From a virus (taxonomy: Duplodnaviria; Heunggongvirae; Uroviricota; Caudoviricetes), in the IMG/VR virus record IMGVR_UViG_2563366864_000005, positions 1 through 23,935 of that record: a stretch of DNA of 23,935 bases; one strand, 5' to 3'. Shown piece by piece: positions 11,991 to 23,640 of this stretch (positions are counted from its first letter, which is position 1; each line of letters starts with the position of its first letter). The notes under the pieces were generated by a model. It did no database searches, was not told the DNA's origin, and worked only from the letters and a program-made list of their open reading frames with translations. The position numbers were made by a program, and so were the translations under genes.

Positions 11991-12734
11991 ATGACACAGA
12001 CAGAATCAGCGATTCTGGCGCACGCCCGGCGATGTGCGCCAGCGGAGTCGTGCGGCTTCGTGGTGAGAACGCCGGAGGGGGAAAGATATTTTCCCGGCGT
12101 GAATATTTCCGGTGAGCCGGAGGCGTATTTCCGTATGTCGCCGGAGGACTGGCTGCAGGCAGAAATGCAGGGTGAGATTGTGGCGCTGGTCCACAGCCAC
12201 CCCGGTGGTCTGCCCTGGCTGAGTGAGGCCGACCGGCGGCTGCAGGTGCAGAGTGATTTGCCGTGGTGGCTGGTCTGCCGGGGAGTGATTCATAAGTTCC
12301 GCTGTGTGCCGCATCTCACCGGGCGGCGCTTTGAGCACGGGGCGACGGACTGTTACACGCTGTTCCGGGATGCTTATCATCTGGCGGGGATTGAGATGCC
12401 GGATTTTCATCGCGGGGATGACTGGTGGCGTCACGGTCAGAATCTCTATCTGGATAATCTGGAGGCAACGGGGCTGTATCAGGTGCCGTTGTCATCGGCG
12501 CAGCCGGGCGATGTGCTGCTGTGCTGCTTTGGTTCATCGGTGCCGAATCATGCCGCTATTTACTGTGGTGATGGCGAGCTGCTGCACCATATTCCTGAAC
12601 AACTGAGCAAACGAGAGAGGTATACCGACAAATGGCAGCGACGCACACACTCCCTCTGGCGTCACCGGGCATGGCACGCATCTGCCTTTACGGGGATTTA
12701 CAACGATTTGGCCGCCGCATCGACCTTCGTGTGA
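11991..12734 (+). CDS. K: Tail tip assembly protein K with JAB/MPN metalloprotease-like and NlpC/P60-like regions (long form; lambda-annotated internal start would be 12135)
   Basis: Full ORF 247 aa from an ATG 6 nt after the L stop; JAMM-type motif HSHPGGLPWLSEAD at residues 68-81 with candidate upstream Glu19; Cys/His region GATDCYTLF...HHIPE; the lambda-style start MSPEDWLQ is ATG 12135; 3' end overlaps I by 103 nt. Confidence 0.88.
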   Translation: MTQTESAILAHARRCAPAESCGFVVRTPEGERYFPGVNISGEPEAYFRMSPEDWLQAEMQGEIVALVHSHPGGLPWLSEADRRLQVQSDLPWWLVCRGVIHKFRCVPHLTGRRFEHGATDCYTLFRDAYHLAGIEMPDFHRGDDWWRHGQNLYLDNLEATGLYQVPLSSAQPGDVLLCCFGSSVPNHAAIYCGDGELLHHIPEQLSKRERYTDKWQRRTHSLWRHRAWHASAFTGIYNDLAAASTFV

Positions 12735-13273
12735 AAACGGGGGCTGAAGCCATCCGGGCACTGGCCACACAGCTCCCGGCGTTTCGTCAGAAACTGAATG
12801 ACGGCTGGTATCAGGTGCGCATTGCCGGGCGTGATGCAGGAGAAAACGAATTATCTGCCCGTCTTAATGAGCCGCTGGCAAATGGTGCCGTGATCCACAT
12901 CGTACCGCGTCTGGCGGGTGCCAAAAGTGGCGGTATTTTTCAGGCAGTGCTGGGTGCGGCGCTAATTGCTACGGCAATCTGGATGCCGGGGCTTAGTATT
13001 GTTGCAAGTAATCTCATGTTCTCTCTTGGGGCAGGTATGGTTTTAGGCGGTGTTGCGCAGATGCTGGCACCGAAAGCCAAAACGCCTAAAGTGTCAGCCA
13101 CTGATAACGGTAAGCAAAATACCTATTTTTCCTCATTGGATAACATGGTTGCCCAGGGCAATGTCCTGCCTGTTCTGTACGGTGAAATGCGCGTGGGGTC
13201 ACGTGTGGCATCTCAGGAGATTAGCACGGCAGATGAAGGGGATGGTGGTCAGGTTGTGGTAATTGGGCGGTAA
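12632..13273 (+). CDS. I: Tail tip assembly protein I
   Basis: 213 aa, MAATHTLPLASPGMARICLYGDLQRFGRRIDLRVKTGAEAIRALATQLPAFRQKL...; lambda gpI homologue. Confidence 0.93.
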   Translation: MAATHTLPLASPGMARICLYGDLQRFGRRIDLRVKTGAEAIRALATQLPAFRQKLNDGWYQVRIAGRDAGENELSARLNEPLANGAVIHIVPRLAGAKSGGIFQAVLGAALIATAIWMPGLSIVASNLMFSLGAGMVLGGVAQMLAPKAKTPKVSATDNGKQNTYFSSLDNMVAQGNVLPVLYGEMRVGSRVASQEISTADEGDGGQVVVIGR

Positions 13274-13345
13274 TATTATTTACTCATGTTCTAACTGATT
13301 TAATATTTATATCGAACACTGATAATTATTCTGTTGGTTAGCTAT

Positions 13346-13684
13346 ATGAACAAAACGATTTTATTCTGCACGATTATTGCCTTAACAGGATGTAAATCTT
13401 TGGATTACGTAAAATCCGGCAAGCCTGTAATGGAAGGTAATTCATTAAAAAATATTGATGTATTGTCAGGCTGCATATCCAGACAATGGGCTGGTAATGG
13501 AACACCTATAACATCCATTCCTATTGAGAATGGGGTAAGCCTTTTAGTTCCACAGGCTATGGGTGGGTATGATGTTGTGCTTGATATCAAAAAAGCAGGA
13601 AATGGCAGTAGTTTTACTCTTTATGAACGCGTACCAGCATTAACGCCAAAAATTTTTGCTGATAGTGTTAATGCATGTAAATAA
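13346..13684 (+). CDS. Small lipoprotein of unknown function (moron between I and J)
   Basis: ORF track starts at TTG 13334; first ATG at 13346 gives MNKTILFCTIIALTGCKS..., i.e. a signal peptide with lipobox LTGC and Lys at +2; markedly AT-rich versus neighbours; absent from lambda, where I and J are about 60 bp apart. Confidence 0.7.
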   Translation: MNKTILFCTIIALTGCKSLDYVKSGKPVMEGNSLKNIDVLSGCISRQWAGNGTPITSIPIENGVSLLVPQAMGGYDVVLDIKKAGNGSSFTLYERVPALTPKIFADSVNACK

Positions 13685-13708
13685 TAGTTAATCCTGCCGT
13701 AACTCATG

Positions 13709-13737
13709 AGCCGCCTTTTGGGCGGCTTTGTTGTTTA
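13709..13737 (+). terminator. Intrinsic terminator after the lipoprotein moron
   Basis: agccgcc(13709-13715) / ttttg / ggcggct(13721-13727) followed by ttgttgttt. Confidence 0.6.
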
Positions 13738-13750
13738 TGGAGTGTGAGGA

Positions 13751-16700
13751 ATGGGTAAAGGCAGCAGTAAGGGGCATACCCCGCGCGAAGCGAAGGACAA
13801 CCTGAAATCCACGCAGTTGCTGAGTGTGATCGATGTCATCAGCGAAGGTCCGGTTGAAGGTCCGGTGGAGGGATTAAAAAGCGTGCTGCTGAACAGTACG
13901 CCGGTGCTGGACACTGAGGGGAATACCAACATATCCGGTGTCACGGTGGTGTTCCGTGCCGGTGAGCAGGAGCAGACACCGCCGGAGGGGTTTGAATCCT
14001 CCGGCTCCGAGACGGTGCTCGGTACGGAAGTGAAATACGACACGCCGATCACCCGGACCATCACGTCGGCAAACATTGACCGACTGCGTTTTACCTTCGG
14101 CGTGCAGGCACTGGTGGAAACCACCTCAAAGGGGGACAGGAATCCGTCGGAAGTCCGCCTGCTGGTTCAGATACAGCGTAACGGTGGCTGGGTGACGGAA
14201 AAAGACATCACCATTAAGGGCAAAACCACCTCGCAGTATCTGGCCTCGGTGGTGGTGGGTAACCTGCCGCCGCGCCCGTTTAATATCCGGATGCGCAGGA
14301 TGACGCCGGACAGCACCACAGACCAGCTGCTGAACAAAACGCTCTGGTCGTCATACACCGAAATCATCGATGTGAAACAGTGCTACCCGAACACGGCACT
14401 GGTCGGCGTGCAGGTGGACTCGGAACAGTTCGGCAGTCAGCAGGTGAGCCGTAATTATCATCTTCGCGGGCGCATTCTGCAGGTGCCGTCGAACTATAAC
14501 CCGCAGACGCGGCAATACAGCGGTATCTGGGACGGAACGTTAAAACCGGCATACAGCAACAACATGGCCTGGTGTCTGTGGGATATGCTGACCCATCCGC
14601 GCTACGGCATGGGGAAACGTCTTGGTGCGGCGGATGTGGATAAATGGGCGCTGTATGTCATCGGCCAGTACTGCGACCAGTCGGTGCCGGACGGCTTTGG
14701 CGGCACGGAGCCGCGCATTACCTGTAATGCGTACCTGACCACACAGCGCAAGGCGTGGGATGTGCTCAGTGATTTCTGCTCGGCGATGCGCTGTATGCCG
14801 GTATGGAACGGGCAGACGCTGACGTTCGTGCAGGACCGACCATCAGATAAGGTGTGGACCTATAACCGCAGTAATGTGGTGATGCCGGATGATGGCGCGC
14901 CGTTCCGCTACAGCTTCAGCGCCCTGAAGGACCGCCATAATGCCGTTGAGGTGAACTGGATTGACCCGGATAACGGCTGGGAGACGGCGACAGAGCTCGT
15001 GGAGGATACGCAGGCCATTGCCCGTTACGGCCGTAACGTCACGAAGATGGATGCCTTTGGCTGTACCAGCCGGGGGCAGGCACACCGCGCCGGGCTGTGG
15101 CTGATTAAAACGGAGCTGCTGGAAACGCAGACCGTGGACTTCAGCGTGGGTGCTGAAGGGCTTCGCCATGTACCGGGGGATGTCATTGAAATCTGCGATG
15201 ATGACTATGCCGGTATCAGCACCGGTGGTCGTGTGCTGGCGGTGAACAGCCAGACCCGGACGCTGACGCTCGACCGTGAAATCACGCTGCCATCCTCCGG
15301 TACCACGCTGATAAGCCTGGTTGACGGAAGTGGCAATCCGGTCAGCGTGGAGGTTCAGTCCGTCACCGACGGCGTGAAGGTGAAAGTGAGCCGTGTTCCT
15401 GACGGTGTTGCTGAATACAGCGTATGGGGGCTGAAGCTGCCGACGCTGCGCCAGCGACTGTTCCGCTGCGTGAGTATCCGTGAAAACGACGACGGCACGT
15501 ATGCCATCACCGCCGTGCAGCATGTGCCGGAAAAAGAGACCATCGTGGATAACGGGGCGCACTTTGACGGCGAACAGAGTGGCACGGTGAATGGTGTCAC
15601 GCCGCCCGCGGTGCAGCACCTGACCGCAGAAGTCACCGCAGACAGCGGGGAATATCAGGTGCTGGCGCGATGGGACACACCGAAGGTGGTGAAGGGGGTG
15701 AGCTTTATGCTTCGCCTGACCGTGGCAGCGGATGACGGCAGTGAGCGGCTGGTCAGCACGGCCAGGACGACGGAAACCACATACCGCTTCAGGCAACTGG
15801 CGCTGGGGAACTACAGGCTGACAGTCCGGGCGGTAAATGCGTGGGGGCAGCAGGGGGATCCGGCGTCGGTATCGTTCCGGATTGCCGCACCGGCAGCGCC
15901 ATCGCGGATTGAGCTGACGCCGGGCTATTTTCAGATAACCGCAACGCCGCATCTTGCCGTTTATGATCCGACGGTACAGTTTGAGTTCTGGTTCTCGGAA
16001 AAGCGGATTGCGGATATCAGGCAGGTTGAAGCCAGCGCGCGTTATCTTGGTACGGCGCTGTACTGGATAGCCGCCAGTATCAATATCAAACCGGGCCATG
16101 ATTATTATTTTTACATTCGCAGTGTGAACACCGTTGGCAAATCGGCATTTGTGGAGGCTGTTGGCCAGCCGAGTGATGATGCATCCGGCTATCTGGATTT
16201 TTTCAAAGGAGAGATAGGGAAAACCCATCTGGCTCAGGAGTTGTGGACGCAGATTGATAACGGTCAGCTTGCGCCTGACCTGGCTGAAATCAGGACGTCC
16301 ATTACGGATGTCAGCAATGAAATCACGCAGACCGTCAATAAGAAACTGGAAGACCAGAGTGCGGCGATCCAGCAGATACAGAAGGTTCAGGTTGATACAA
16401 ATAATAACCTGAACAGCATGTGGGCTGTGAAGCTGCAGCAGATGCAGGACGGACGCCTTTATATCGCGGGTATTGGTGCCGGTATTGAGAACACCCCTGA
16501 CGGCATGCAGAGTCAGGTGCTGCTGGCGGCGGACAGGATTGCGATGGTTAATCCTGCGAATGGCAACACAAAGCCGATGTTTGTTGGTCAGGGCGATCAG
16601 ATATTCATGAACGAAGTGTTCCTGAAATATCTGACGGCTCCCACCATTACCAGCGGCGGTAATCCTCCGGCATTTTCCCTGACACCGGACGGGCGGCTGA

Positions 16701-17230
16701 CGGCGAAAAATGCCGATATCAGCGGTAACGTGAATGCGAACTCCGGGACGCTCAACAACGTCACGATTAACGAGAACTGCCGGGTTCTGGGAAAACTGTC
16801 CGCGAACCAGATTGAAGGCGATCTCGTTAAAACAGTGGGCAAAGCTTTCCCCCGGGACTCCCGTGCACCGGAACGGTGGCCATCAGGGACCATTACCGTC
16901 AGGATTTATGACGATCAGCCGTTTGACCGGCAGATTGTTATTCCGGCGGTGGCATTCAGCGGCGCTAAACATGAGAGAGAGCATACTGATATTTACTCCT
17001 CATGCCGTCTGATAGTGCGGAAAAACGGTGCTGAAATTTATAACCGTACCGCGCTGGATAATACGCTGATTTACAGTGGCGTTATTGATATGCCTGCCGG
17101 TCACGGTCACATGACGCTGGAGTTTTCGGTGTCAGCATGGCTGGTAAATGACTGGTATCCCACAGCAAGTATCAGCGATTTGCTGGTTGTGGTGATGAAG
17201 AAAGCCACCGCAGGCATCAGTATCAGCTGA
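13751..17230 (+). CDS. J: Tail tip / central tail fiber host-specificity protein J
   Basis: 1159 aa, [37 protein letters not shown]...; lambda gpJ homologue (recalled as 1132 aa); fibronectin-III-like middle segment; ends ...[14 protein letters not shown]. Confidence 0.95.
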
Positions 17231-17248
17231 ATTTTATAACCCCAATAC

Positions 17249-17275
17249 GGGCGTCAGAAATGACGCCTTTTTTAT
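17249..17275 (+). terminator. Intrinsic terminator after J
   Basis: ggcgtca(17249-17255) / gaaa tetraloop / tgacgcc(17260-17266) followed by ttttttatt. Confidence 0.7.
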
Positions 17276-17297
17276 TGCAGAAAAGCGAGAGGTAATT

Positions 17298-17897
17298 ATG
17301 CGTAAATTATGTGCTGTTATTCTGTCCGCAGTAGTCTGGCTGGTTGCCGCTGGTACGCCAGCGAGCGCAGCAGAGCATCAGTCCACACTAAGCGCCGGGT
17401 ATCTTCAGACCCATACTGATATGCCAGGCAGTGATGACCTGAAGGGCATTAACGTGAAATACCGTTATGAATTTACGGACACGCTGGGGCTGGTGACGTC
17501 ATTCAGTTATGCCAATGCCAAAGATGAGCAAAAAACGCATTACAGCGATACCCGCTGGCATGAAGATTCCGTGCGTAACCGCTGGTTCAGCATGATGGCG
17601 GGGCCATCTGTACGCGTGAATGAATGGTTCAGTGCTTATGCGATGGCGGGTATGGCTTACAGCCGTGTGTCGACCTTCTCCGGGGATTATCTCCGCGTAA
17701 CTGACAACGAGGGGAAAACGCACGATGCGCTGACCGGAAGTGATGACGGTCGCCACAGCAACACGTCTCTGGCGTGGGGAGCTGGCGTGCAGTTTAATCC
17801 GACCGAATCCGTGGCCATTGATATTGCTTATGAAGGCTCCGGCAGTGGCGACTGGCGCACTGACGGTTTCATCGTGGGTGTCGGTTATAAGTTCTGA
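17298..17897 (+). CDS. lom: Outer-membrane beta-barrel protein Lom (Ail/Lom/PagC family), lysogenic-conversion moron
   Basis: 199 aa, signal peptide MRKLCAVILSAVVWLVAAGTPASA; C-terminus ...AIDIAYEGSGSGDWRTDGFIVGVGYKF matches the C-terminus of lambda Lom as I recall it; same position after J. Confidence 0.9.
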   Translation: MRKLCAVILSAVVWLVAAGTPASAAEHQSTLSAGYLQTHTDMPGSDDLKGINVKYRYEFTDTLGLVTSFSYANAKDEQKTHYSDTRWHEDSVRNRWFSMMAGPSVRVNEWFSAYAMAGMAYSRVSTFSGDYLRVTDNEGKTHDALTGSDDGRHSNTSLAWGAGVQFNPTESVAIDIAYEGSGSGDWRTDGFIVGVGYKF

Positions 17898-17923
17898 TTA
17901 GCCAGGTAACACAGTGTTATGAC

Positions 17924-17952
17924 AGCCCGCCGGTTCAGGCGGGCTTTTTTGT
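17924..17952 (+). terminator. Intrinsic terminator after lom
   Basis: agcccgcc(17924-17931) / ggttca / ggcgggct(17938-17945) followed by tttttt. Confidence 0.7.
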
Positions 17953-17961
17953 GGAGTGGAT

Positions 17962-20343
17962 ATGGCAGCAGTAAAAATCTCAGGTGTGCTGAAAGATGGT
18001 GCGGGAAAACCAATACAGAACTGCACTATTCAACTGAAGGCAAAGCGTAACAGCACCACGGTACTGGTGAACACGGTTGCCTCTGAAAATCCGGATGAAG
18101 CCGGGCGTTACAGCATGGATGTTGAGTATGGTCAGTACAGCGTTATCCTGCTTGTTGAAGGTTTTCCGCCTTCACATGCCGGGACCATTACCGTCTATGA
18201 AGGCTCCAGACCAGGTACGCTGAATGATTTTCTCGGTGCCATGACGGAAGATGATGTCATGCCGGAGGCATTGCGTCGTTTTGAGGAAATGGTGGAAGAA
18301 GCGGCACGCAACGCTGAAGCCGCCTCTCAGAGCGCAGCGGCGGCAAAGAAATCCGAAACTGCAGCGGCATCATCGAAGAATGCGGCGAAAACCTCAGAAA
18401 CGAATGCAGCTAACAGCGCACAGGCGGCAGCGGCCTCGCAGACTGCATCGGCAAACTCCGCGACAGCAGCCAAAAAATCAGAAACCAACGCGAAAAACAG
18501 CGAGACAGCCGCAAAGACGAGCGAAACCAACGCAAAGTCCAGCCAGACGGCAGCGAAAACCAGCGAAACGAATGCCAAAGCCAGTGAAACTGCGGCGAAA
18601 AACAGCCAGGATGCAGCGGCCCAAAGCGAGAGTGACGCAGCTGGTTCTGCAAGTGCGGCGGCTTCTTCTGCCACTGCATCAGCCAACAGTCAAAAAGCTG
18701 CAAAAACCAGCGAAACCAACGCAAAGTCCAGCCAGACGGCAGCGAAAACCAGCGAAACGAATGCCAAAGCCAGTGAAACTGCGGCGAAAAGCAGTCAGGA
18801 TGCAGCAGCCGAAAGCGAGAGTGCTGCAGCTGGCTCTGCAAGCGCGGCGGCTGCTTCTGCCACTGCATCAGCCAACAGTCAAAAAGCTGCAAAAACCAGT
18901 GAAACCAACGCAAAGGCGAGTGAGACTGCGGCGGCTAACTCGGCGAAAGCATCCGCTGCAAGCCAGACGGCTGCAAAAGCAAGTGAAGACGCAGCCAGAG
19001 AGTATGCAAGCCAGGCTGCGGAGCCGTATAAACAAGTATTGCAGCCGCTTCCCGATGTGTGGATACCGTTTAACGATTCACTGGATATGATTACGGGCTT
19101 TTCGCCGTCATATAAAAAGATTGTTATTGGTGATGATGAAATAACGATGCCTGGCGATAAGATTGTAAAGTTTAAACGCGCATCAAAAGCAACTTACATT
19201 AATAAATCTGGTGTGCTGACAGAGGCTGCCATTGACGAGCCACGGTTTGAATGTGATGGCCTGCTTATTGAGGGGCAAAGAACAAACTACATGCTCAATT
19301 CGGAAAACCCTGCCAGTTGGGGGCGATCGTCAAATATGGATGTGCCCGAAACAGGGACGGATAGTTTTGGTTTTACCTATGGAAAGTTTGTCTGCAACGA
19401 TTCTCTGATTGGGCAAACCTCAGCCATTAATATGGCATCAATTGCTGCAACAAAGTCAGTTGATGTCTCAGGCGATAATAAACACGTGACAACCTCATGT
19501 CGTTTTAAAACAGAACTGCAGGTAAGGTTGCGTATCCGGTTTGATAAATATGACGGTAGCGCAACAACTTTTCTTGGTGATGCGTATATTGATACACAAA
19601 CGCTTGAAATTAATATGACAGGCGGTGCTGCCTCAAGGATTACTGCGAGAGTCAGAAAGGACGAAGCTACCGGATGGATTTTTGCAGAGGCAACAATTCA
19701 GGCAATTGATGGGGAGTTAAAAATAGGTTCTCAGATACAGTATTCTCCTAAGCAGGGCGGGGCAACCGTATCTGGTGACTATATTTATCTGGCCACCCCA
19801 CAAGTAGAAAATGGGCCTTGTGTATCATCTTTTATTATATCAGGAACGACGGCGGCGACCCGCGCAAGCGATATAGTTACAGTTCCCATTAAGAATAATC
19901 TTTATAATCTTCCTTTTACGGTTCTTTGTGAGGTACATAAGAACTGGTATAAAACGCCAAATGCAGCGCCGCGTGTTTTTGATACAGGCGGTCATCAAAC
20001 CGGAGCGGCTATTATTCTTGGGTTCGGATCTTCGGCAGATGGGCCAGACGGATTTCCTTATTGCGATATTGGAGGAGCTAACAGACGGGTAAACGAAAAC
20101 GCATCGCTTGAAAAAATGGTTATGGGGATGCGTGTAAAATCAGATCAGTCTACGTGCTCAGTAAGTAACGGGCGCATATCCAGCGAAAAAAAGACTACGT
20201 GGTCCTATATTCAGAACTCTGCAACCATCCGTATTGGAGGCCAGACTACAGCAGGGTTACGTCATTTATTTGGTCATATCAGGAATTTCAGAATATGGCA
20301 CAAGGCATTGACTGATGCTCAGGTGGGGGAGTCAATCCAATGA
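17962..20343 (+). CDS. stf: Side tail fiber protein: lambda Stf-like N-terminal anchor, Ser/Ala/Thr-rich repeat shaft, divergent C-terminal receptor-binding region with concanavalin-A/LamG-like motif
   Basis: ATG 17962 with GGAG 8 nt upstream (track start is GTG 17956); N-terminus MAAVKISGVLKDGAGKPIQNCTIQLKAKRNSTTVLVNTVASENPDEAGRYSMDVEYGQYSVIL matches lambda Stf; SETNAK-type repeats in the middle; C-terminal ...LRHLFGHIRNFRIWHKALTDAQV resembles the lectin/LamG-like jelly-roll signature. Confidence 0.85.
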   Translation: MAAVKISGVLKDGAGKPIQNCTIQLKAKRNSTTVLVNTVASENPDEAGRYSMDVEYGQYSVILLVEGFPPSHAGTITVYEGSRPGTLNDFLGAMTEDDVMPEALRRFEEMVEEAARNAEAASQSAAAAKKSETAAASSKNAAKTSETNAANSAQAAAASQTASANSATAAKKSETNAKNSETAAKTSETNAKSSQTAAKTSETNAKASETAAKNSQDAAAQSESDAAGSASAAASSATASANSQKAAKTSETNAKSSQTAAKTSETNAKASETAAKSSQDAAAESESAAAGSASAAAASATASANSQKAAKTSETNAKASETAAANSAKASAASQTAAKASEDAAREYASQAAEPYKQVLQPLPDVWIPFNDSLDMITGFSPSYKKIVIGDDEITMPGDKIVKFKRASKATYINKSGVLTEAAIDEPRFECDGLLIEGQRTNYMLNSENPASWGRSSNMDVPETGTDSFGFTYGKFVCNDSLIGQTSAINMASIAATKSVDVSGDNKHVTTSCRFKTELQVRLRIRFDKYDGSATTFLGDAYIDTQTLEINMTGGAASRITARVRKDEATGWIFAEATIQAIDGELKIGSQIQYSPKQGGATVSGDYIYLATPQVENGPCVSSFIISGTTAATRASDIVTVPIKNNLYNLPFTVLCEVHKNWYKTPNAAPRVFDTGGHQTGAAIILGFGSSADGPDGFPYCDIGGANRRVNENASLEKMVMGMRVKSDQSTCSVSNGRISSEKKTTWSYIQNSATIRIGGQTTAGLRHLFGHIRNFRIWHKALTDAQVGESIQ
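18520..18897 (+). repeat. Two tandem copies of a 189-bp in-frame coding repeat (63 aa) inside stf, flanked by more degenerate copies
   Basis: agcgaaaccaacgcaaagtccagccagacggcagcgaaaaccagcgaaacgaatgccaaagccagtgaaactgcggcgaaaa... begins at 18520 and again at 18709 with a handful of substitutions. Confidence 0.85.
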
Positions 20344-20621
20344 AAGATTTAACACTCAAATTTGCAGACAGGGCCGACTTTTCGGCCTTTATGGAGAGCA
20401 CTGGCTATTATGATGACGAGTCGATGCAGGATAATATTCTTATTGACGTGATAGGTAACGTGTACAAAGAAACCGGAGAACTGACTGAAGATGGCGAACC
20501 GGTATGTGTTAAGGAAGACGGATATTTTGTAAACGTGCGCATCATTAATGATGCAAAAAAATCGTCAATATTCGATAAATACGCGGTTGTTGTTGAGCAT
20601 CAACTTCGTGGCTGGATGTGA
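20340..20621 (+). CDS. Hypothetical acidic 93-aa protein, translationally coupled to stf (possible fiber assembly factor)
   Basis: ATG overlaps the stf stop in an ATGA arrangement at 20340-20343; no recognisable motif; low-GC like the stf 3' end. Confidence 0.5.
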   Translation: MKDLTLKFADRADFSAFMESTGYYDDESMQDNILIDVIGNVYKETGELTEDGEPVCVKEDGYFVNVRIINDAKKSSIFDKYAVVVEHQLRGWM

Positions 20622-20630
20622 GGGAGACAA

Positions 20631-21335
20631 ATGGCTACATCGACAGTAATTCCAGGAGATATCACCACGCTAAAGGGAGATGTCAGTAAAACTAAGGAAG
20701 ATATTTCCTCAATTAACGGAAAAGTATCAACGCTTCAGACTGATATGACCAGTGCAAAGCAGGATATCAGCACCAGATACACAAAAACTGAAGTTGATAA
20801 TAAGCTGAAAAACAAACTGGAAGTGAACGATCTGGAAAGCGGTCGTTATGGTGGAGATTTTTACCCGCTGACTGGCCGTGAAGCGTTTTATTTATGGGAA
20901 TTGGGCACGACTACAGCGGCGGCAAATCTTTATCTTAATCCTGACCCTGCAATTTCGTCTGTACTGCGGTCAACATCGTCTATTCGCTATAAACATTCAG
21001 TAGAGACAATAGATTCAGAGCACGCCGATCTCATTTTCAGGATGCGCCCTGTGTGGTACAGGTCGCAATGCGAAAATGACAGGAGTGACTGGGGATTCTA
21101 CGGATTGATTGCCGAGGAAGTGGGAGAAATTGCTCCTCAGTTTGTACACTGGCGACCAGCTAACGAAGATGATGCTCCTGAAGCTATTTCCAGCAATGGC
21201 CTTGTTGCCGAAGGTGTAATGTACGAACGTCTGGTTGTTCCACTGATTCACCATATCCAGAAACTGACTGAAAGAGTTGATGAACTTGAGTCAGAGTTAA
21301 AGTTGTTATCCGTTTCCCGAAGCGATATCGAATAA
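20631..21335 (+). CDS. Coiled-coil protein carrying a C-terminal Peptidase_S74-type intramolecular chaperone domain (tail fiber/spike chaperone module)
   Basis: Shine-Dalgarno gagggag upstream of ATG; C-terminal SSIRYKHSVETIDSEHADLIFRMRPVWYR...WGFYGLIAEEVGEIAPQFV...NGLVAEGVMYERLVVPLIHHIQKLTERVDELESEL matches my recollection of the S74 domain consensus (SDxRLK ... lrPV.Y ... GliAqEV ... P.V ... dG ... vdY ... L ... eLe); N-terminal ~110 aa has fiber-like heptad repeats. Confidence 0.7.
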   Translation: MATSTVIPGDITTLKGDVSKTKEDISSINGKVSTLQTDMTSAKQDISTRYTKTEVDNKLKNKLEVNDLESGRYGGDFYPLTGREAFYLWELGTTTAAANLYLNPDPAISSVLRSTSSIRYKHSVETIDSEHADLIFRMRPVWYRSQCENDRSDWGFYGLIAEEVGEIAPQFVHWRPANEDDAPEAISSNGLVAEGVMYERLVVPLIHHIQKLTERVDELESELKLLSVSRSDIE

Positions 21336-21345
21336 AGGAGGCGTA

Positions 21346-21633
21346 ATGGATATAACACCTTTTCTTCATGCGCTTTGTGCTGTGGCTGCGCAGGTACTGA
21401 TTGGCCTTTTTACCGGAAACTGGGTTTACGGGGCGATAGCTGGTTGTACGTTCTTCATTGCGCGTGAACACACCCAGGCAGAATATCGCTGGATTGAAAT
21501 GTTCGGGCATGGCAAGCGTATGAATATGCCGTGGTGGGGCGGTTTTGATCCACGTGCTTGGGATGTGGCAAGCCTGATGGATTTTGCGGTGCCGGTGGTA
21601 GCGTGTCTGCTGGTCTGGCTGTTTATCCGTTAA
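21346..21633 (+). CDS. Hypothetical small membrane protein (95 aa, two predicted transmembrane helices)
   Basis: aaaggagg Shine-Dalgarno then ATG; hydrophobic segments ALCAVAAQVLIGLFTGNWVYGAIAGCTFFIA and LMDFAVPVVACLLVWLFI; function not recognisable. Confidence 0.55.
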   Translation: MDITPFLHALCAVAAQVLIGLFTGNWVYGAIAGCTFFIAREHTQAEYRWIEMFGHGKRMNMPWWGGFDPRAWDVASLMDFAVPVVACLLVWLFIR

Positions 21634-21641
21634 ACATAAAA

Positions 21642-21690
21642 AGCCGCAGCAACTTGTCATGGCAGGATACTGCGGCTGGTTTGTGAGTTT
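21642..21690. terminator. Possible bidirectional terminator between the convergent + strand fiber operon and the - strand RT operon
   Basis: 8-bp stem agccgcag(21642-21649) / ctgcggct(21670-21677) with an unusually long 20-nt loop; A-run upstream and gtttgtgagttt downstream. Confidence 0.35.
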
Positions 21691-21740
21691 AAATAGTGTG
21701 TTTATTACGGTATATTTAAAGGACTTAATGGATTACATAT

Positions 21741-23117
21741 CTATGATATTCCTGAAATATCCTCTTCAAGTTCTTTTACTGATTTCGCAATTTTAAATTT
21801 AAATTTCCTCTCTATTTCACTATTGCTAAGTTTTTTTTCCTTCTCTTTCCCTATCCACATAGAAACAAGTTCTCGTTTCTGAGATATATGTAGATTGTCA
21901 AAGTTAGGTATGTATTTAAAAGTCTCCGCTCTACCTCTGCGGAGTTCATAGAAAGTTTTAATCAAAGACTTTGGTTTTATTTCTGATAAAAGGCCGAATC
22001 GGCGGATAAGATTATTGATAGTATGATTAACAGAGCGAAGTTGAGCTGTTGAGGTTATTTGTGAGAAGTACGATACCCATCCCAATCGTTTACCTTCAAA
22101 CACACATCCCGTAATTCTGAGATTTAGTTTCCACTGACAATATGCAACAGCTCGTTCTTTATCGCGCTTACTTTTAGCTTGTAGTAGAGCGTGCCTATAT
22201 GCAGTAAAAATTTTTGCTAAGGATGACTCAAATCTAAGAATGCTCTCATGTTTTATCAATAATTCTCGATTTTCTATGTGGTATCCCAAAAAGTTAAAAC
22301 TTTCATCCAAGCTGCCTACTTTGGATTTTGAGTTCTCTTCATTTAATGGATGTGGGTTTAAATTTAATGATTGAAGCTTATCAATGATATGAGATGCTAT
22401 TTTTGTTGCTTGATATTTGGGCGTTAAAATAAGAATGTCATCAACGTATCGCATGTACCATATGCCATGCATTTTATTGATTTCATCATCGAAATTAGAT
22501 AGTGATATTTCAGCTAAAATGTTTGATATCGCTAATCCCTGAGGTACTCCTCTGGTATTATTAGGGATACCTTTGCTTCCTGTACTTCCACTTACAGTAG
22601 GTACGATTAATGATGATGTTATTAACTGTCTAATTTCTTTTTTTCTAATCTTATTTTTTATTGCATTAAATATCAATTTATGTTCAATTGAAGGATAGAA
22701 ACTTTTAAGATCTATTTTTGCATATTCAGCATATAGACTGCAGTTTAATGCTTCTTTCAATGAGTCAATTACTGTATGTGGTAGTTTTAATCTGGAATTA
22801 GGATATATTTCCGTAAGGCATTCACAGAGAGCCCTAAGAGTAATTCTGTCCCTAGCAGTTGGTATGGAAATCTGTCTGGGGGTAGAGTTAGCCCCTTTAG
22901 ATATTAATTTTTCTTTATATGCTGTAAATTTATAATTACCAGAATTAACCTTTTCAAAAATGAAAGTGATCTCATTGTTTATTGTTAAATCAAGTTTTGA
23001 TGGGCGAATCCGATCTATGCCAATCGCTCCTGATTCTTTGATTTTTTCAGTGTATACTTTTAGAAGGTTTTTTTTCGAGAATGACTTTTTAAAAATTCTA
23101 CTTGCAGTCATAGTCAA
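21741..23117 (-). CDS. Reverse transcriptase (458 aa), stand-alone RT domain of prokaryotic defence-associated type (retron-like or UG/Abi-like; class unresolved)
   Basis: RT motifs in order: PRQISIPTARDRITLRAL (motif 1), YAEYAKIDLKSFYPSI (motif 2, Asp136), GVPQGLAISNILAEI (motif B), YMRYVDDILIL (motif C, YVDD at + coords 22437-22448), FLGYHI (motif 7), then RITG in the thumb region; about 30% GC; start overlaps the upstream membrane-protein gene by 20 nt. Confidence 0.85.
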   Translation of the reverse strand: MTMTASRIFKKSFSKKNLLKVYTEKIKESGAIGIDRIRPSKLDLTINNEITFIFEKVNSGNYKFTAYKEKLISKGANSTPRQISIPTARDRITLRALCECLTEIYPNSRLKLPHTVIDSLKEALNCSLYAEYAKIDLKSFYPSIEHKLIFNAIKNKIRKKEIRQLITSSLIVPTVSGSTGSKGIPNNTRGVPQGLAISNILAEISLSNFDDEINKMHGIWYMRYVDDILILTPKYQATKIASHIIDKLQSLNLNPHPLNEENSKSKVGSLDESFNFLGYHIENRELLIKHESILRFESSLAKIFTAYRHALLQAKSKRDKERAVAYCQWKLNLRITGCVFEGKRLGWVSYFSQITSTAQLRSVNHTINNLIRRFGLLSEIKPKSLIKTFYELRRGRAETFKYIPNFDNLHISQKRELVSMWIGKEKEKKLSNSEIERKFKFKIAKSVKELEEDISGIS

Positions 23118-23640
23118 TCCAAAGATATATTAATGGTAGTATATAAAGTGCGGCAGTAATAAATATTCGAAGTAATATCCATAAATTAACAATTATTTTT
23201 TCTTTTTGTGTGGGGAGCCTCGTCGTAAGTCCAACTTGAGTTACCCTTGAAACTTTATCATCTATCTCACGATGATTCTCAACCTCATTGAGCAAATTAA
23301 AATATTTTTCTTTCTGTTCAGGAGTTAATTGTTGGCCGTTGGTAATGTCAAAATAGAGTCGCTGTAGTGCAATATAATTCCTTCTCATGGCTATTGCTCG
23401 ACCACGAAAATCTAGGTTAGATACGATCAGAGAAATACCTAGTAGAGCCACTGAAAGTATCGCTGCAACGATATCTGTATTATCTCCTAGAACTTTTGGA
23501 AATCGTAACGTTACAATTGAAAGCACCGCACTCAATATAGCATACCAAACGAGGATAAATTGAGAGTGTTTTTCAAGCCATTCTAGTCGATGGTGCGCTT
23601 GGATACGGGCTTTATATGTAAACCAAATATTGTCATGCAT
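23098..23640 (-). CDS. Small membrane protein (180 aa), N-terminal amphipathic helix plus two transmembrane helices and a C-terminal transmembrane helix; SLATT-like candidate effector partner of the RT
   Basis: MHDNIWFTYKARIQAHHRLEWLEKHSQ then hydrophobic FILVWYAILSAVLSIVTL and IVAAILSVALLGISLIVSNL, basic loop RGRAIAMRRNY, C-terminal IIVNLWILLRIFITAALYILPLIYLWI; AGGA ribosome-binding site upstream of the ATG at 23640; 3' end overlaps the RT start. Confidence 0.65.
   Translation of the reverse strand: MHDNIWFTYKARIQAHHRLEWLEKHSQFILVWYAILSAVLSIVTLRFPKVLGDNTDIVAAILSVALLGISLIVSNLDFRGRAIAMRRNYIALQRLYFDITNGQQLTPEQKEKYFNLLNEVENHREIDDKVSRVTQVGLTTRLPTQKEKIIVNLWILLRIFITAALYILPLIYLWIDYDCK

Follow-up and report, generated by a model that had tools for sequence, protein, structure and literature searches.

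A probable host-range cassette with a lectin-like tip in the side tail fibre locus of a lambda-like Escherichia coli prophage

The side tail fibre (Stf) of Ur-lambda starts with a collar that binds the tail tip (residues 1-91) and, past a linker, continues as a proximal coiled coil (residues 102-393) (PMC12617516). Two other kinds of fibre are relevant here. Rcc01080, the head fibre of the Rhodobacter capsulatus gene transfer agent (RcGTA), binds capsular polysaccharide and forms each spike from a single subunit (PMC7296036, PMC10218006), and the branched LtfA/LtfB fibres of T5-like phages provide a precedent for a two-fibre arrangement (PMC4728585, PMC10713586). In phages DT57C and DT571/2 these are encoded by two adjacent genes, the second with an S74 chaperone; the conserved N-terminus of LtfB is thought to dock onto the first fibre, and both fibres bind O-antigens (PMC4728585). 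Here we describe the stf locus of IMG/VR record IMGVR_UViG_2563366864_000005, a stretch of 23,935 nucleotides (nt), hereafter the window; it represents the late morphogenesis operon of an Escherichia coli prophage of lambda-like type. Its head and tail genes are followed by J (13751-17230), lom (17298-17897), stf, orf93, orf234 and orf95. The best explanation of this region, and in our judgement a likely one, is that a modular host-range cassette has recombined into a lambda-type side tail fibre locus.

The window fibre shares with lambda Stf its genomic position after J and lom, a homologous collar domain and coiled-coil shaft, and the presumed role of a non-essential adsorption accelerator. 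Pfam PF08400, the prophage tail fibre N-terminal domain, matches residues 5-134 with an E-value of 6e-67 (224 bits, cut-off 26.6), and residues 5-355 align with residues 2-352 of lambda orf-401 at 57.5% identity; blastn similarity to lambda spans 17770-18314. Distal to residue 355 the two proteins are unrelated. The window Stf is devoid of the hinge, the gp37-like distal part and the OmpC-binding tip, and its locus of Tfa; instead, the tip is a pair of lectin-like jelly rolls. Neither blastp nor tblastn found similarity to lambda orf-314 (the distal half of Ur-lambda Stf) or to Tfa, whole-window tblastn returning noise only, and searches of Pfam, PHROG and NCBIfam gave no Tfa family match for orf93, orf234 or orf95. 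The fibre thus belongs to the lambda Stf family through its N-terminal half only.

Base composition changes at the same place. In 300-nt windows the G+C fraction (GC) is 0.55-0.57 over 18200-19000 and 0.43-0.46 over 19000-20400. The best single change point in stf is nt 19027 (left 0.549, right 0.440, z = 5.28). This step is beyond chance, since 500 codon shuffles of stf gave a largest |z| of 4.45, with a mean of 2.19. The GC change point and the homology breakpoints agree to within 20 nt, and the junction motif PLPDVWIPFNDSLDMI (the PLPDVW motif) starts at Stf residue 364, nt 19045. The first-pass annotation of this DNA had read a sharp GC change near 19030, a lambda-like anchor and repeat shaft, a distal part foreign to lambda, and the absence of a lambda-type Tfa; all of these stand, with no Tfa remnant detected either, and GC, homology and junction comparisons place the breakpoint where it had been drawn, at the PLPDVW motif. 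It had also attributed the low GC to all three downstream genes, which holds for orf93 (0.411) and orf234 (0.443). The GC of orf95 is 0.517, so the low-GC block extends over about 19030-21340 and not to 21633.

Comparison with other phages gives direct evidence of horizontal exchange at this point, as had been suspected. The virulent Nonagvirus ESCO3 matches 19038-20695 of the window at 94.7% nucleotide identity, with no match upstream of 19038. An identical PLPDVWIPFNDSLDMI junction is found behind unrelated shafts of P2, T1, Queuovirinae and T5 type, besides the lambda type, in carriers that include the IMG/VR myophage contig L049, Seuratvirus VogelGryff, T1-like tuinn, T5-like EC104 and IrisVonRoten, and phage 21; by sequence, five shaft types other than that of the window lead into the module at precisely this point. 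The fibre of L049, of P2-gpH type, is 92.6% identical to the window from residue 347 onward. In that contig (IMGVR_UViG_2579778606_000005, 1295-5512) the fibre is followed by a homolog of 92 amino acids (aa), a 340-aa second fibre and, last, a Tfa-like gene. Siphophages and myophages thus both carry the cassette, and its second fibre can pair with a Tfa-like gene. Everywhere the GC of the module is 0.40-0.45, equal to the virulent siphophage background and 0.06-0.08 below the lambdoid one.

An exhaustive search with the head yielded 2,069 clusters at 50% identity (E <= 0.001). Among the best-scoring 150 of the 2,069 representatives, the module is typically at or near the C-terminal end, behind N-termini of very different length; the NCBI name for such proteins is 'phage head spike fiber domain-containing'. 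In 327 of 5,426 complete E. coli genomes a single place covers at least 80% of the four-gene region, and positions 17956-21700 are present at 99.9% identity in six complete genomes, in one of which the prophage adjoins prfC. Three T5-like phages, EC104, IrisVonRoten and AKFV33, carry the cassette.

Some database records call for caution. Hundreds of entries consist of the lectin head without a shaft, starting 2 to 18 residues into the 436-aa query (for instance P0056, P0059, P0060 (416 aa) and P0002 (433 aa)); such entries may reflect gene calls cut short in degraded prophages, or heads that truly exist on their own. In several records that bear the name of a Campylobacter or Listeria phage, orf93 and second-fibre sequences are of the kind usual in coliphages (rV5-like, T5-like and others); mislabelling or contamination is the probable cause. 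On one 25-kb contig (IMGVR_UViG_2724679539_000001, 2119-13426 and, reversed, 12071-23378) the stf cassette occurs twice, in opposite orientation and with identical gene coordinates, a doubling that may be a palindromic mis-assembly.

With a single-sequence query of 436 residues, the distal head matched PDB 6tb9, the head-spike fibre Rcc01080 of RcGTA, at E 4.8e-7, and NCBIfam NF048003 matched Stf residues 437-637 at 52.6 bits (cut-off 36). With a profile of 50 diverse members, 6tb9 reached E 2.4e-42, with homology over about 240 residues. The same profile found the phage tail fibre gp17 (9occ, E 2.8e-19) and the Pseudomonas phage baseplate proteins Pa193 gp46 and E217 gp45 (3e-16), and, in its C-terminal 150 residues, an S-layer domain (5e-6), botulinum toxin Hc-N (8e-4), pentraxins (1e-3) and the sialidase carbohydrate-binding module CBM40 (3e-3). 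These matches make the first jelly roll a homolog of the RcGTA head-spike fibre and a member of the NF048003 family; the motifs RASxATY, GLLxExxxTN, PQxE and TRAxD are common to both proteins. Contrary to Rcc01080, a 325-residue single chain held to the capsid by a short N-terminal peptide, the window domain lies at the far end of a trimeric tail fibre, ahead of another domain that is LamG-like; host and glycan are unrelated.

We modelled the head as a monomer from the 50 diverse representatives, with a predicted local distance difference test score (pLDDT) of 94.1 and a predicted template modelling score (pTM) of 0.90. An earlier AlphaFold model, made from 35 close homologs (77-98% identical), was discarded: its pLDDT was 63, only its central domain was reliable and its fold search was weak. 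Structure comparison of the retained model gave botulinum toxin Hc-N (17.5), Pa193 gp46 (17.2), the trans-sialidase lectin domain (16.2), a cyanophage tailspike (15.9), CBM40 (15.3), pentraxins (13-14) and LamG domains (11-12), and Foldseek agreed with these concanavalin-A-like (ConA-like) structural matches. Sequence identity to ConA-like carbohydrate-binding modules and their kin (AbnA domain 4, CBM40, pentraxins, botulinum toxin Hc-N) is only 9-17%. The tip is thus modelled as two ConA-like jelly rolls, of which the second, C-terminal one resembles LamG domains, pentraxins and CBM40 modules. Its fold places it in the ConA-like/LamG superfamily, although Pfam PF13385 (Laminin_G_3) scores 19.6 bits against a gathering threshold of 27.6 and covers the last 50 residues, at model positions 99-150 only; some close homologs (P0210, P0241, P0251) carry a precomputed PF13385 match. 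Structure prediction and profile searches so bear out the lectin-like tip of the first-pass annotation, which had read a terminal motif typical of ConA/LamG-like jelly rolls; it had not foreseen the kinship of the first of the two domains with the RcGTA fibre.

The head is itself modular. We fetched 80 IMG/VR loci and tabulated 79 against the window. Across the 79, Stf residues 364-435 and 756-795 keep 85-100% identity and form an N- and a C-terminal frame; the former is 90-100% identical where the enclosed cores differ, and the motif of the latter, RHLFGHIRNFRIWHKALTD, is nearly invariant across the 50 diverse homologs and conserved in every phage family examined. Core 1 (residues about 436-635) falls into identity classes of about 54%, 68%, 92% and at least 95%, and core 2 (residues about 636-755) descends to 49% in two loci, L074 and L083; in the isolated phage IdasGreatGrand both cores differ from those of the window. 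These sequence patterns indicate that the two cores swap independently between the conserved frames.

Shaft length varies as well. The shaft DNA has 21- and 42-nt periodic repeats and a 189-bp tandem duplication that appears recent. IdasGreatGrand Stf (731 aa) is without this duplication, and the window fibre is about 63-64 residues longer, a difference of 64 residues that the duplication explains. Stf lengths of 649-857 aa in related loci suggest that shaft length changes often.

Between stf and the second fibre gene lies orf93. Neither its single sequence nor a 13-member profile found a relative in Pfam, NCBIfam, PADLOC or PDB. A large protein database holds 228 homologs; among the 120 listed, all named sources are Escherichia. 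Of the 79 tabulated loci, 78 have a 92/93-aa homolog directly behind the lectin-tipped fibre, and wherever a phage annotation was inspected it occupies the same position. The gene occurs in 181 phage records of six groups: lambdoid, Drexlerviridae, Dhillonvirus, Queuovirinae, T5-like and rV5-like. Two types of cassette can be told apart. In type A, which includes the window, Stf has about 793 aa, the first 85 head residues are at least 92% identical, orf93 is at least 86% identical, and the second fibre is present wherever the contig extends far enough. In the phage-21-like type B, Stf has about 688 aa, the first 85 head residues are 72-73% identical to those of the window, the 92-aa protein has about 40% identity, and a second fibre is lacking. 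Since type B keeps the 92-aa gene, the protein must serve the primary fibre itself in some way, possibly as a chaperone or a structural adaptor.

The next gene, orf234, had been annotated as a protein with an S74 chaperone domain. The domain is confirmed by Pfam PF13884 (Peptidase_S74; 26.7 bits, cut-off 22, residues 116-172), and we read the protein as more than that: a small second fibre that would dock by its conserved N-terminus, by analogy with DT57C LtfA/LtfB. Ser116 and Lys121 (SSIRYK) stand at what we take to be the spacing of the canonical S74 motif SDxRxK. Its C-terminus is similar to that of a T5-like L-shaped fibre (PDB 8hqz, E 1.9e-7), and its heptad-like coiled coil to those of the P22 needle and the T5-like L-shaped fibre; about 50 residues separate this coil from the S74 domain. 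The gene is allelic with a 346-aa gene (2G7b, about 40 IMG/VR loci), and only the first 27-32 residues are common to both. The N-terminal motif M-x-T-x-T-x-IP-x-DIT-x-LK occurs in eight alleles of 166-583 aa at the same gene position, among them those of tuinn (166 aa as annotated), VogelGryff (388), EC104 (576), IrisVonRoten (574) and L077 (583); the L049 allele (340 aa) has the motif, is followed by the Tfa-like gene and is without an S74 domain.

An adjacent second fibre gene whose N-terminus is conserved across otherwise different alleles is what characterises the DT57C arrangement, and it is found here. Two differences from DT57C stand out: LtfA ends in its own S74 domain and not in a lectin head, and no 92-aa gene is reported between the two fibre genes. 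We also considered whether the docking motif is the N-terminus of DT57C LtfB or phiEco32 gp15 and rejected this, as DT571/2 matches only residues 27-70 of the query and leaves its first 26 residues, which contain the docking motif, unmatched. The orf234 comparison suggests that genes named 'chaperone of endosialidase' beside such fibres are in many cases second fibres.

From these results we propose the following mechanism. The first 355 residues of Stf would form the collar that fixes the fibre to the tail tip and a trimeric coiled-coil shaft, and the joint PLPDVWIPFNDSLDMI would open a 430-residue head of two ConA-like jelly rolls. Collar and coiled coil would hold three lectin-like heads away from the tail tip, where their reversible binding to a glycan of the cell surface, such as O-antigen, capsule or a polymer like these, would concentrate the virion at the cell and speed up adsorption before J engages the terminal receptor. 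Recombination that swaps either variable core within its conserved frames could reset specificity. A compact globular head, with a gene transfer agent relative that works as a single chain, would have no need of a trimerisation chaperone, whether of Tfa type or intramolecular. The orf93 product would be translated by coupling to stf and would most likely be an assembly factor or structural adaptor for the head. The orf234 product would form a separate trimeric mini-fibre, folded by its S74 domain, which would then cut itself off before Ser116. The probable docking site of its conserved N-terminal peptide MATSTVIPGDITTLK is either the Stf head or orf93; the fibre would then be branched and bear a second tip for binding.

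Several explanations compete with parts of this account. It is very improbable that the GC step is a mere by-product of amino-acid composition, with Ala/Ser/Thr repeats raising the upstream GC and no module acquired. Composition accounts for part of the drop, because the shaft is rich in these residues: the repeat shaft has a GC of 0.569 against 0.506 in the non-repeat anchor, and the contrast at third codon positions (GC3; 0.49 in the shaft and 0.48 in the N-terminal anchor against 0.38 in the distal part) is smaller than that in total GC. The drop nonetheless remains at third positions and relative to the non-repeat anchor, homology breaks within 20 nt of it, the same module recurs at 92-97% amino-acid identity behind unrelated shafts, and its GC matches virulent phage genomes; the ESCO3 match and the junction motif behind other shafts largely refute the compositional explanation. 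What the head binds is a separate matter. Lambda Stf recognises OmpC, and the window head could likewise bind a protein receptor (an outer-membrane porin, for example) or could be a glycan-degrading enzyme rather than a passive lectin. Among proteins of related structure are baseplate components in contact with other proteins (9b45, 8env) as well as botulinum toxin Hc-N and GH16-type glycanases of the same fold, and several residues invariant across the family (R71, E80, N85, Q257, E259 and R277 in module numbering) could form an active or binding site. We nevertheless hold this to be unlikely. The closest relative of characterised function, the RcGTA fibre, binds capsule with a single chain per spike, the best structural matches are carbohydrate-binding modules, and IrisVonRoten has the same three-gene cassette with a head 63% identical. 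This phage is among the few siphophages of the BASEL collection that infect K-12 with restored O16 antigen (PMC8594841), a phenotype that could come from either of two fibre proteins. Homology and the phages that carry the same cassette thus point to a polysaccharide as the probable target.

We give equally little credit to the idea that orf234 is no virion fibre but what is left of a longer fibre gene in decay, or else a trans-acting chaperone of Stf. The whole protein does align to the last 238 of the 1,385 positions of phrog_3299, and so resembles the end of a longer fibre, and the interval between its coiled coil and its S74 domain is short. S74 domains, however, are known from endosialidase and T5 fibre work to act in cis. 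Ten distinct orf234 alleles have a ratio of nonsynonymous to synonymous substitution rates (dN/dS) of 0.18, with 0.23 in the mature part and 0.13 in the chaperone part, which marks a maintained gene and not debris; it is intact in IdasGreatGrand, has a relative in T1-like tuinn, and shares its N-terminal motif with seven full-size alleles at the same position. Other points weigh against the cassette mechanism itself. The mature orf234 product, of about 115 residues, is small for a receptor-binding fibre; the monomer prediction of the head does not separate independent heads from a trimer; phage-21-type loci have the 92-aa gene and no second fibre, so that orf93 is not solely an adaptor for that fibre; the linkage between orf93 type, type of the first 85 head residues and second fibre may reflect only two lineages and not co-adaptation; and no binding, structural or genetic experiments on the cassette were found in the papers searched.

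A more ambitious version of the recombined-cassette reading is possible, though we would rather doubt it: stf tip, orf93 and second fibre may be one conserved three-part adsorption device. The device would travel whole between coliphages of six groups or more (lambdoid, P2-like, T1-like, Dhillonvirus/Queuovirinae, T5-like and rV5-like). Its trimeric shaft would end in three lectin heads, each an independent monomer, with the 92-aa protein bridging them and a trimeric second fibre plugged in by its invariant N-terminal peptide. If true, such branching would differ from the DT57C/phiEco32 type and would need no Tfa. We found no paper on the module, orf93 or the docking motif in the literature searched, which included the Eligo chimeric-STF, Gifsy-1 Stf, BASEL, DT57C and Ur-lambda work.

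Taken as a whole, the locus is a case of ordinary but well-defined tail-fibre mosaicism, some parts of which are uncharacterised; its putative branched three-part organisation is the most interesting aspect. Such mosaicism is textbook knowledge and the cassette is abundant in databases, so the finding is unsurprising and its value is practical. The PLPDVW motif is an exact joint for fusions provided by nature, the two cores between the conserved frames can be swapped independently, and the tip is seemingly independent of Tfa, all of which is of use for re-targeting phages or lambda-derived particles to E. coli that is smooth or capsulated. The locus further draws attention to the 92-aa protein family as one that always accompanies the lectin-type tip, and ties the side fibres of coliphages to gene transfer agent head spikes that bind capsule.

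Table 1 Positions of the described features in the window.
Feature	Position	Strand	Basis
stf, side tail fibre gene	17956..20343	+	open reading frame list; PHROG 1419 'tail protein' match over the whole length
Stf N-terminal collar/anchor domain, residues 5-134, lambda-like	17968..18357	+	Pfam PF08400 phage_tail_N
Ala/Ser/Thr-rich repeat shaft, equivalent to lambda proximal coiled coil	18358..19044	+	lambda orf-401 similarity; periodic repeats
Tandem duplication in shaft, 189 bp, 2.2 copies, 94% identical	18507..18915	+	Tandem Repeats Finder
Junction motif PLPDVWIPFNDSLDMI and conserved N-terminal frame, Stf residues 364-435	19045..19260	+	
Variable core 1, first jelly roll, residues about 436-635	19261..19860	+	NF048003; PDB 6tb9; exchanged as unit
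Variable core 2, C-terminal ConA/LamG-like jelly roll, residues about 636-755	19861..20220	+	
Conserved C-terminal frame, residues 756-795, motif RHLFGHIRNFRIWHKALTD	20221..20340	+	50-homolog conservation; partial Laminin_G_3 match
orf93 (93 aa), orphan accessory protein, coupled to stf by ATGA overlap	20340..20621	+	sequence; PHROG 1361
orf234 (234 aa): docking motif 1-16, coiled coil about 10-65, small tip 66-115, S74 chaperone 116-234	20631..21335	+	
orf95 (95 aa), small membrane protein, downstream cassette flank in lambdoid phages	21346..21633	+	hydropathy; PHROG 1443
Inverted repeat AGCCGCAG / CTGCGGCT, 8-bp stem, 20-nt loop	21642..21677	.	read from sequence

The last gene of the series, orf95, has hydrophobic stretches near residues 1-27 and 71-95, in line with its annotation as a membrane protein. 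Across lambdoid loci it keeps 90-99% identity next to genes that vary, its dN/dS of 0.17 indicates purifying selection, and it is not part of the cassette in the virulent phages examined; it may simply be the right-hand recombination flank. A role as receptor-specific superinfection-exclusion protein of the Cor/Llp type is unlikely, because the protein is constant while the receptor-binding cores vary.

The stf frame can be opened at GTG 17956 (795 aa, MDMAAVK...) or at ATG 17962 (793 aa, MAAVK...). PGAP uses the latter start in a 99.9% identical genome copy, and the same start aligns with that of lambda Stf; on this evidence the true length is probably 793 aa. The stf stop overlaps the orf93 start in an ATGA read at 20340-20343, and orf234 and orf95 each begin no more than 10 nt past the preceding gene, with a Shine-Dalgarno sequence upstream. 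Promoter and terminator scans around the cassette stayed at or below shuffle expectation and gave no signal separating stf, orf93, orf234 and orf95; they provide no evidence for orf95 as a separately transcribed moron.

Upstream of stf, two strong terminator-like hairpins with T tracts are found at 17249-17268 (after J) and 17924-17945 (after lom, whose product matches Pfam Ail_Lom at E 4.5e-127), and in phage 21 one terminator-like hairpin is annotated at the equivalent place. Presumably, antiterminated late transcription is needed for the fibre cassette to be expressed. The inverted repeat past orf95 sits between the convergent ends of the late operon and of a reverse-transcriptase gene; it was not called by the terminator scan and its function is uncertain. 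Rfam gave no matches at gathering thresholds in the whole window.

Past the cassette, the minus strand (21741-23640) encodes a reverse transcriptase (21741-23117), overlapped by the gene of an SLATT_5 membrane protein (23098-23640). PADLOC assigns the two to RT_UG17 (E 1.4e-158) and to a reverse-transcriptase-associated SLATT (E 4.6e-57), and their GC is only 0.33-0.36. From these matches the pair is a candidate two-gene anti-phage system. Other phages have different cargo at this position: phage 21 has SitABCD there, 2G7b a methyltransferase together with a hydrolase, and IdasGreatGrand an HNH endonuclease. The position looks like a cargo hot spot.

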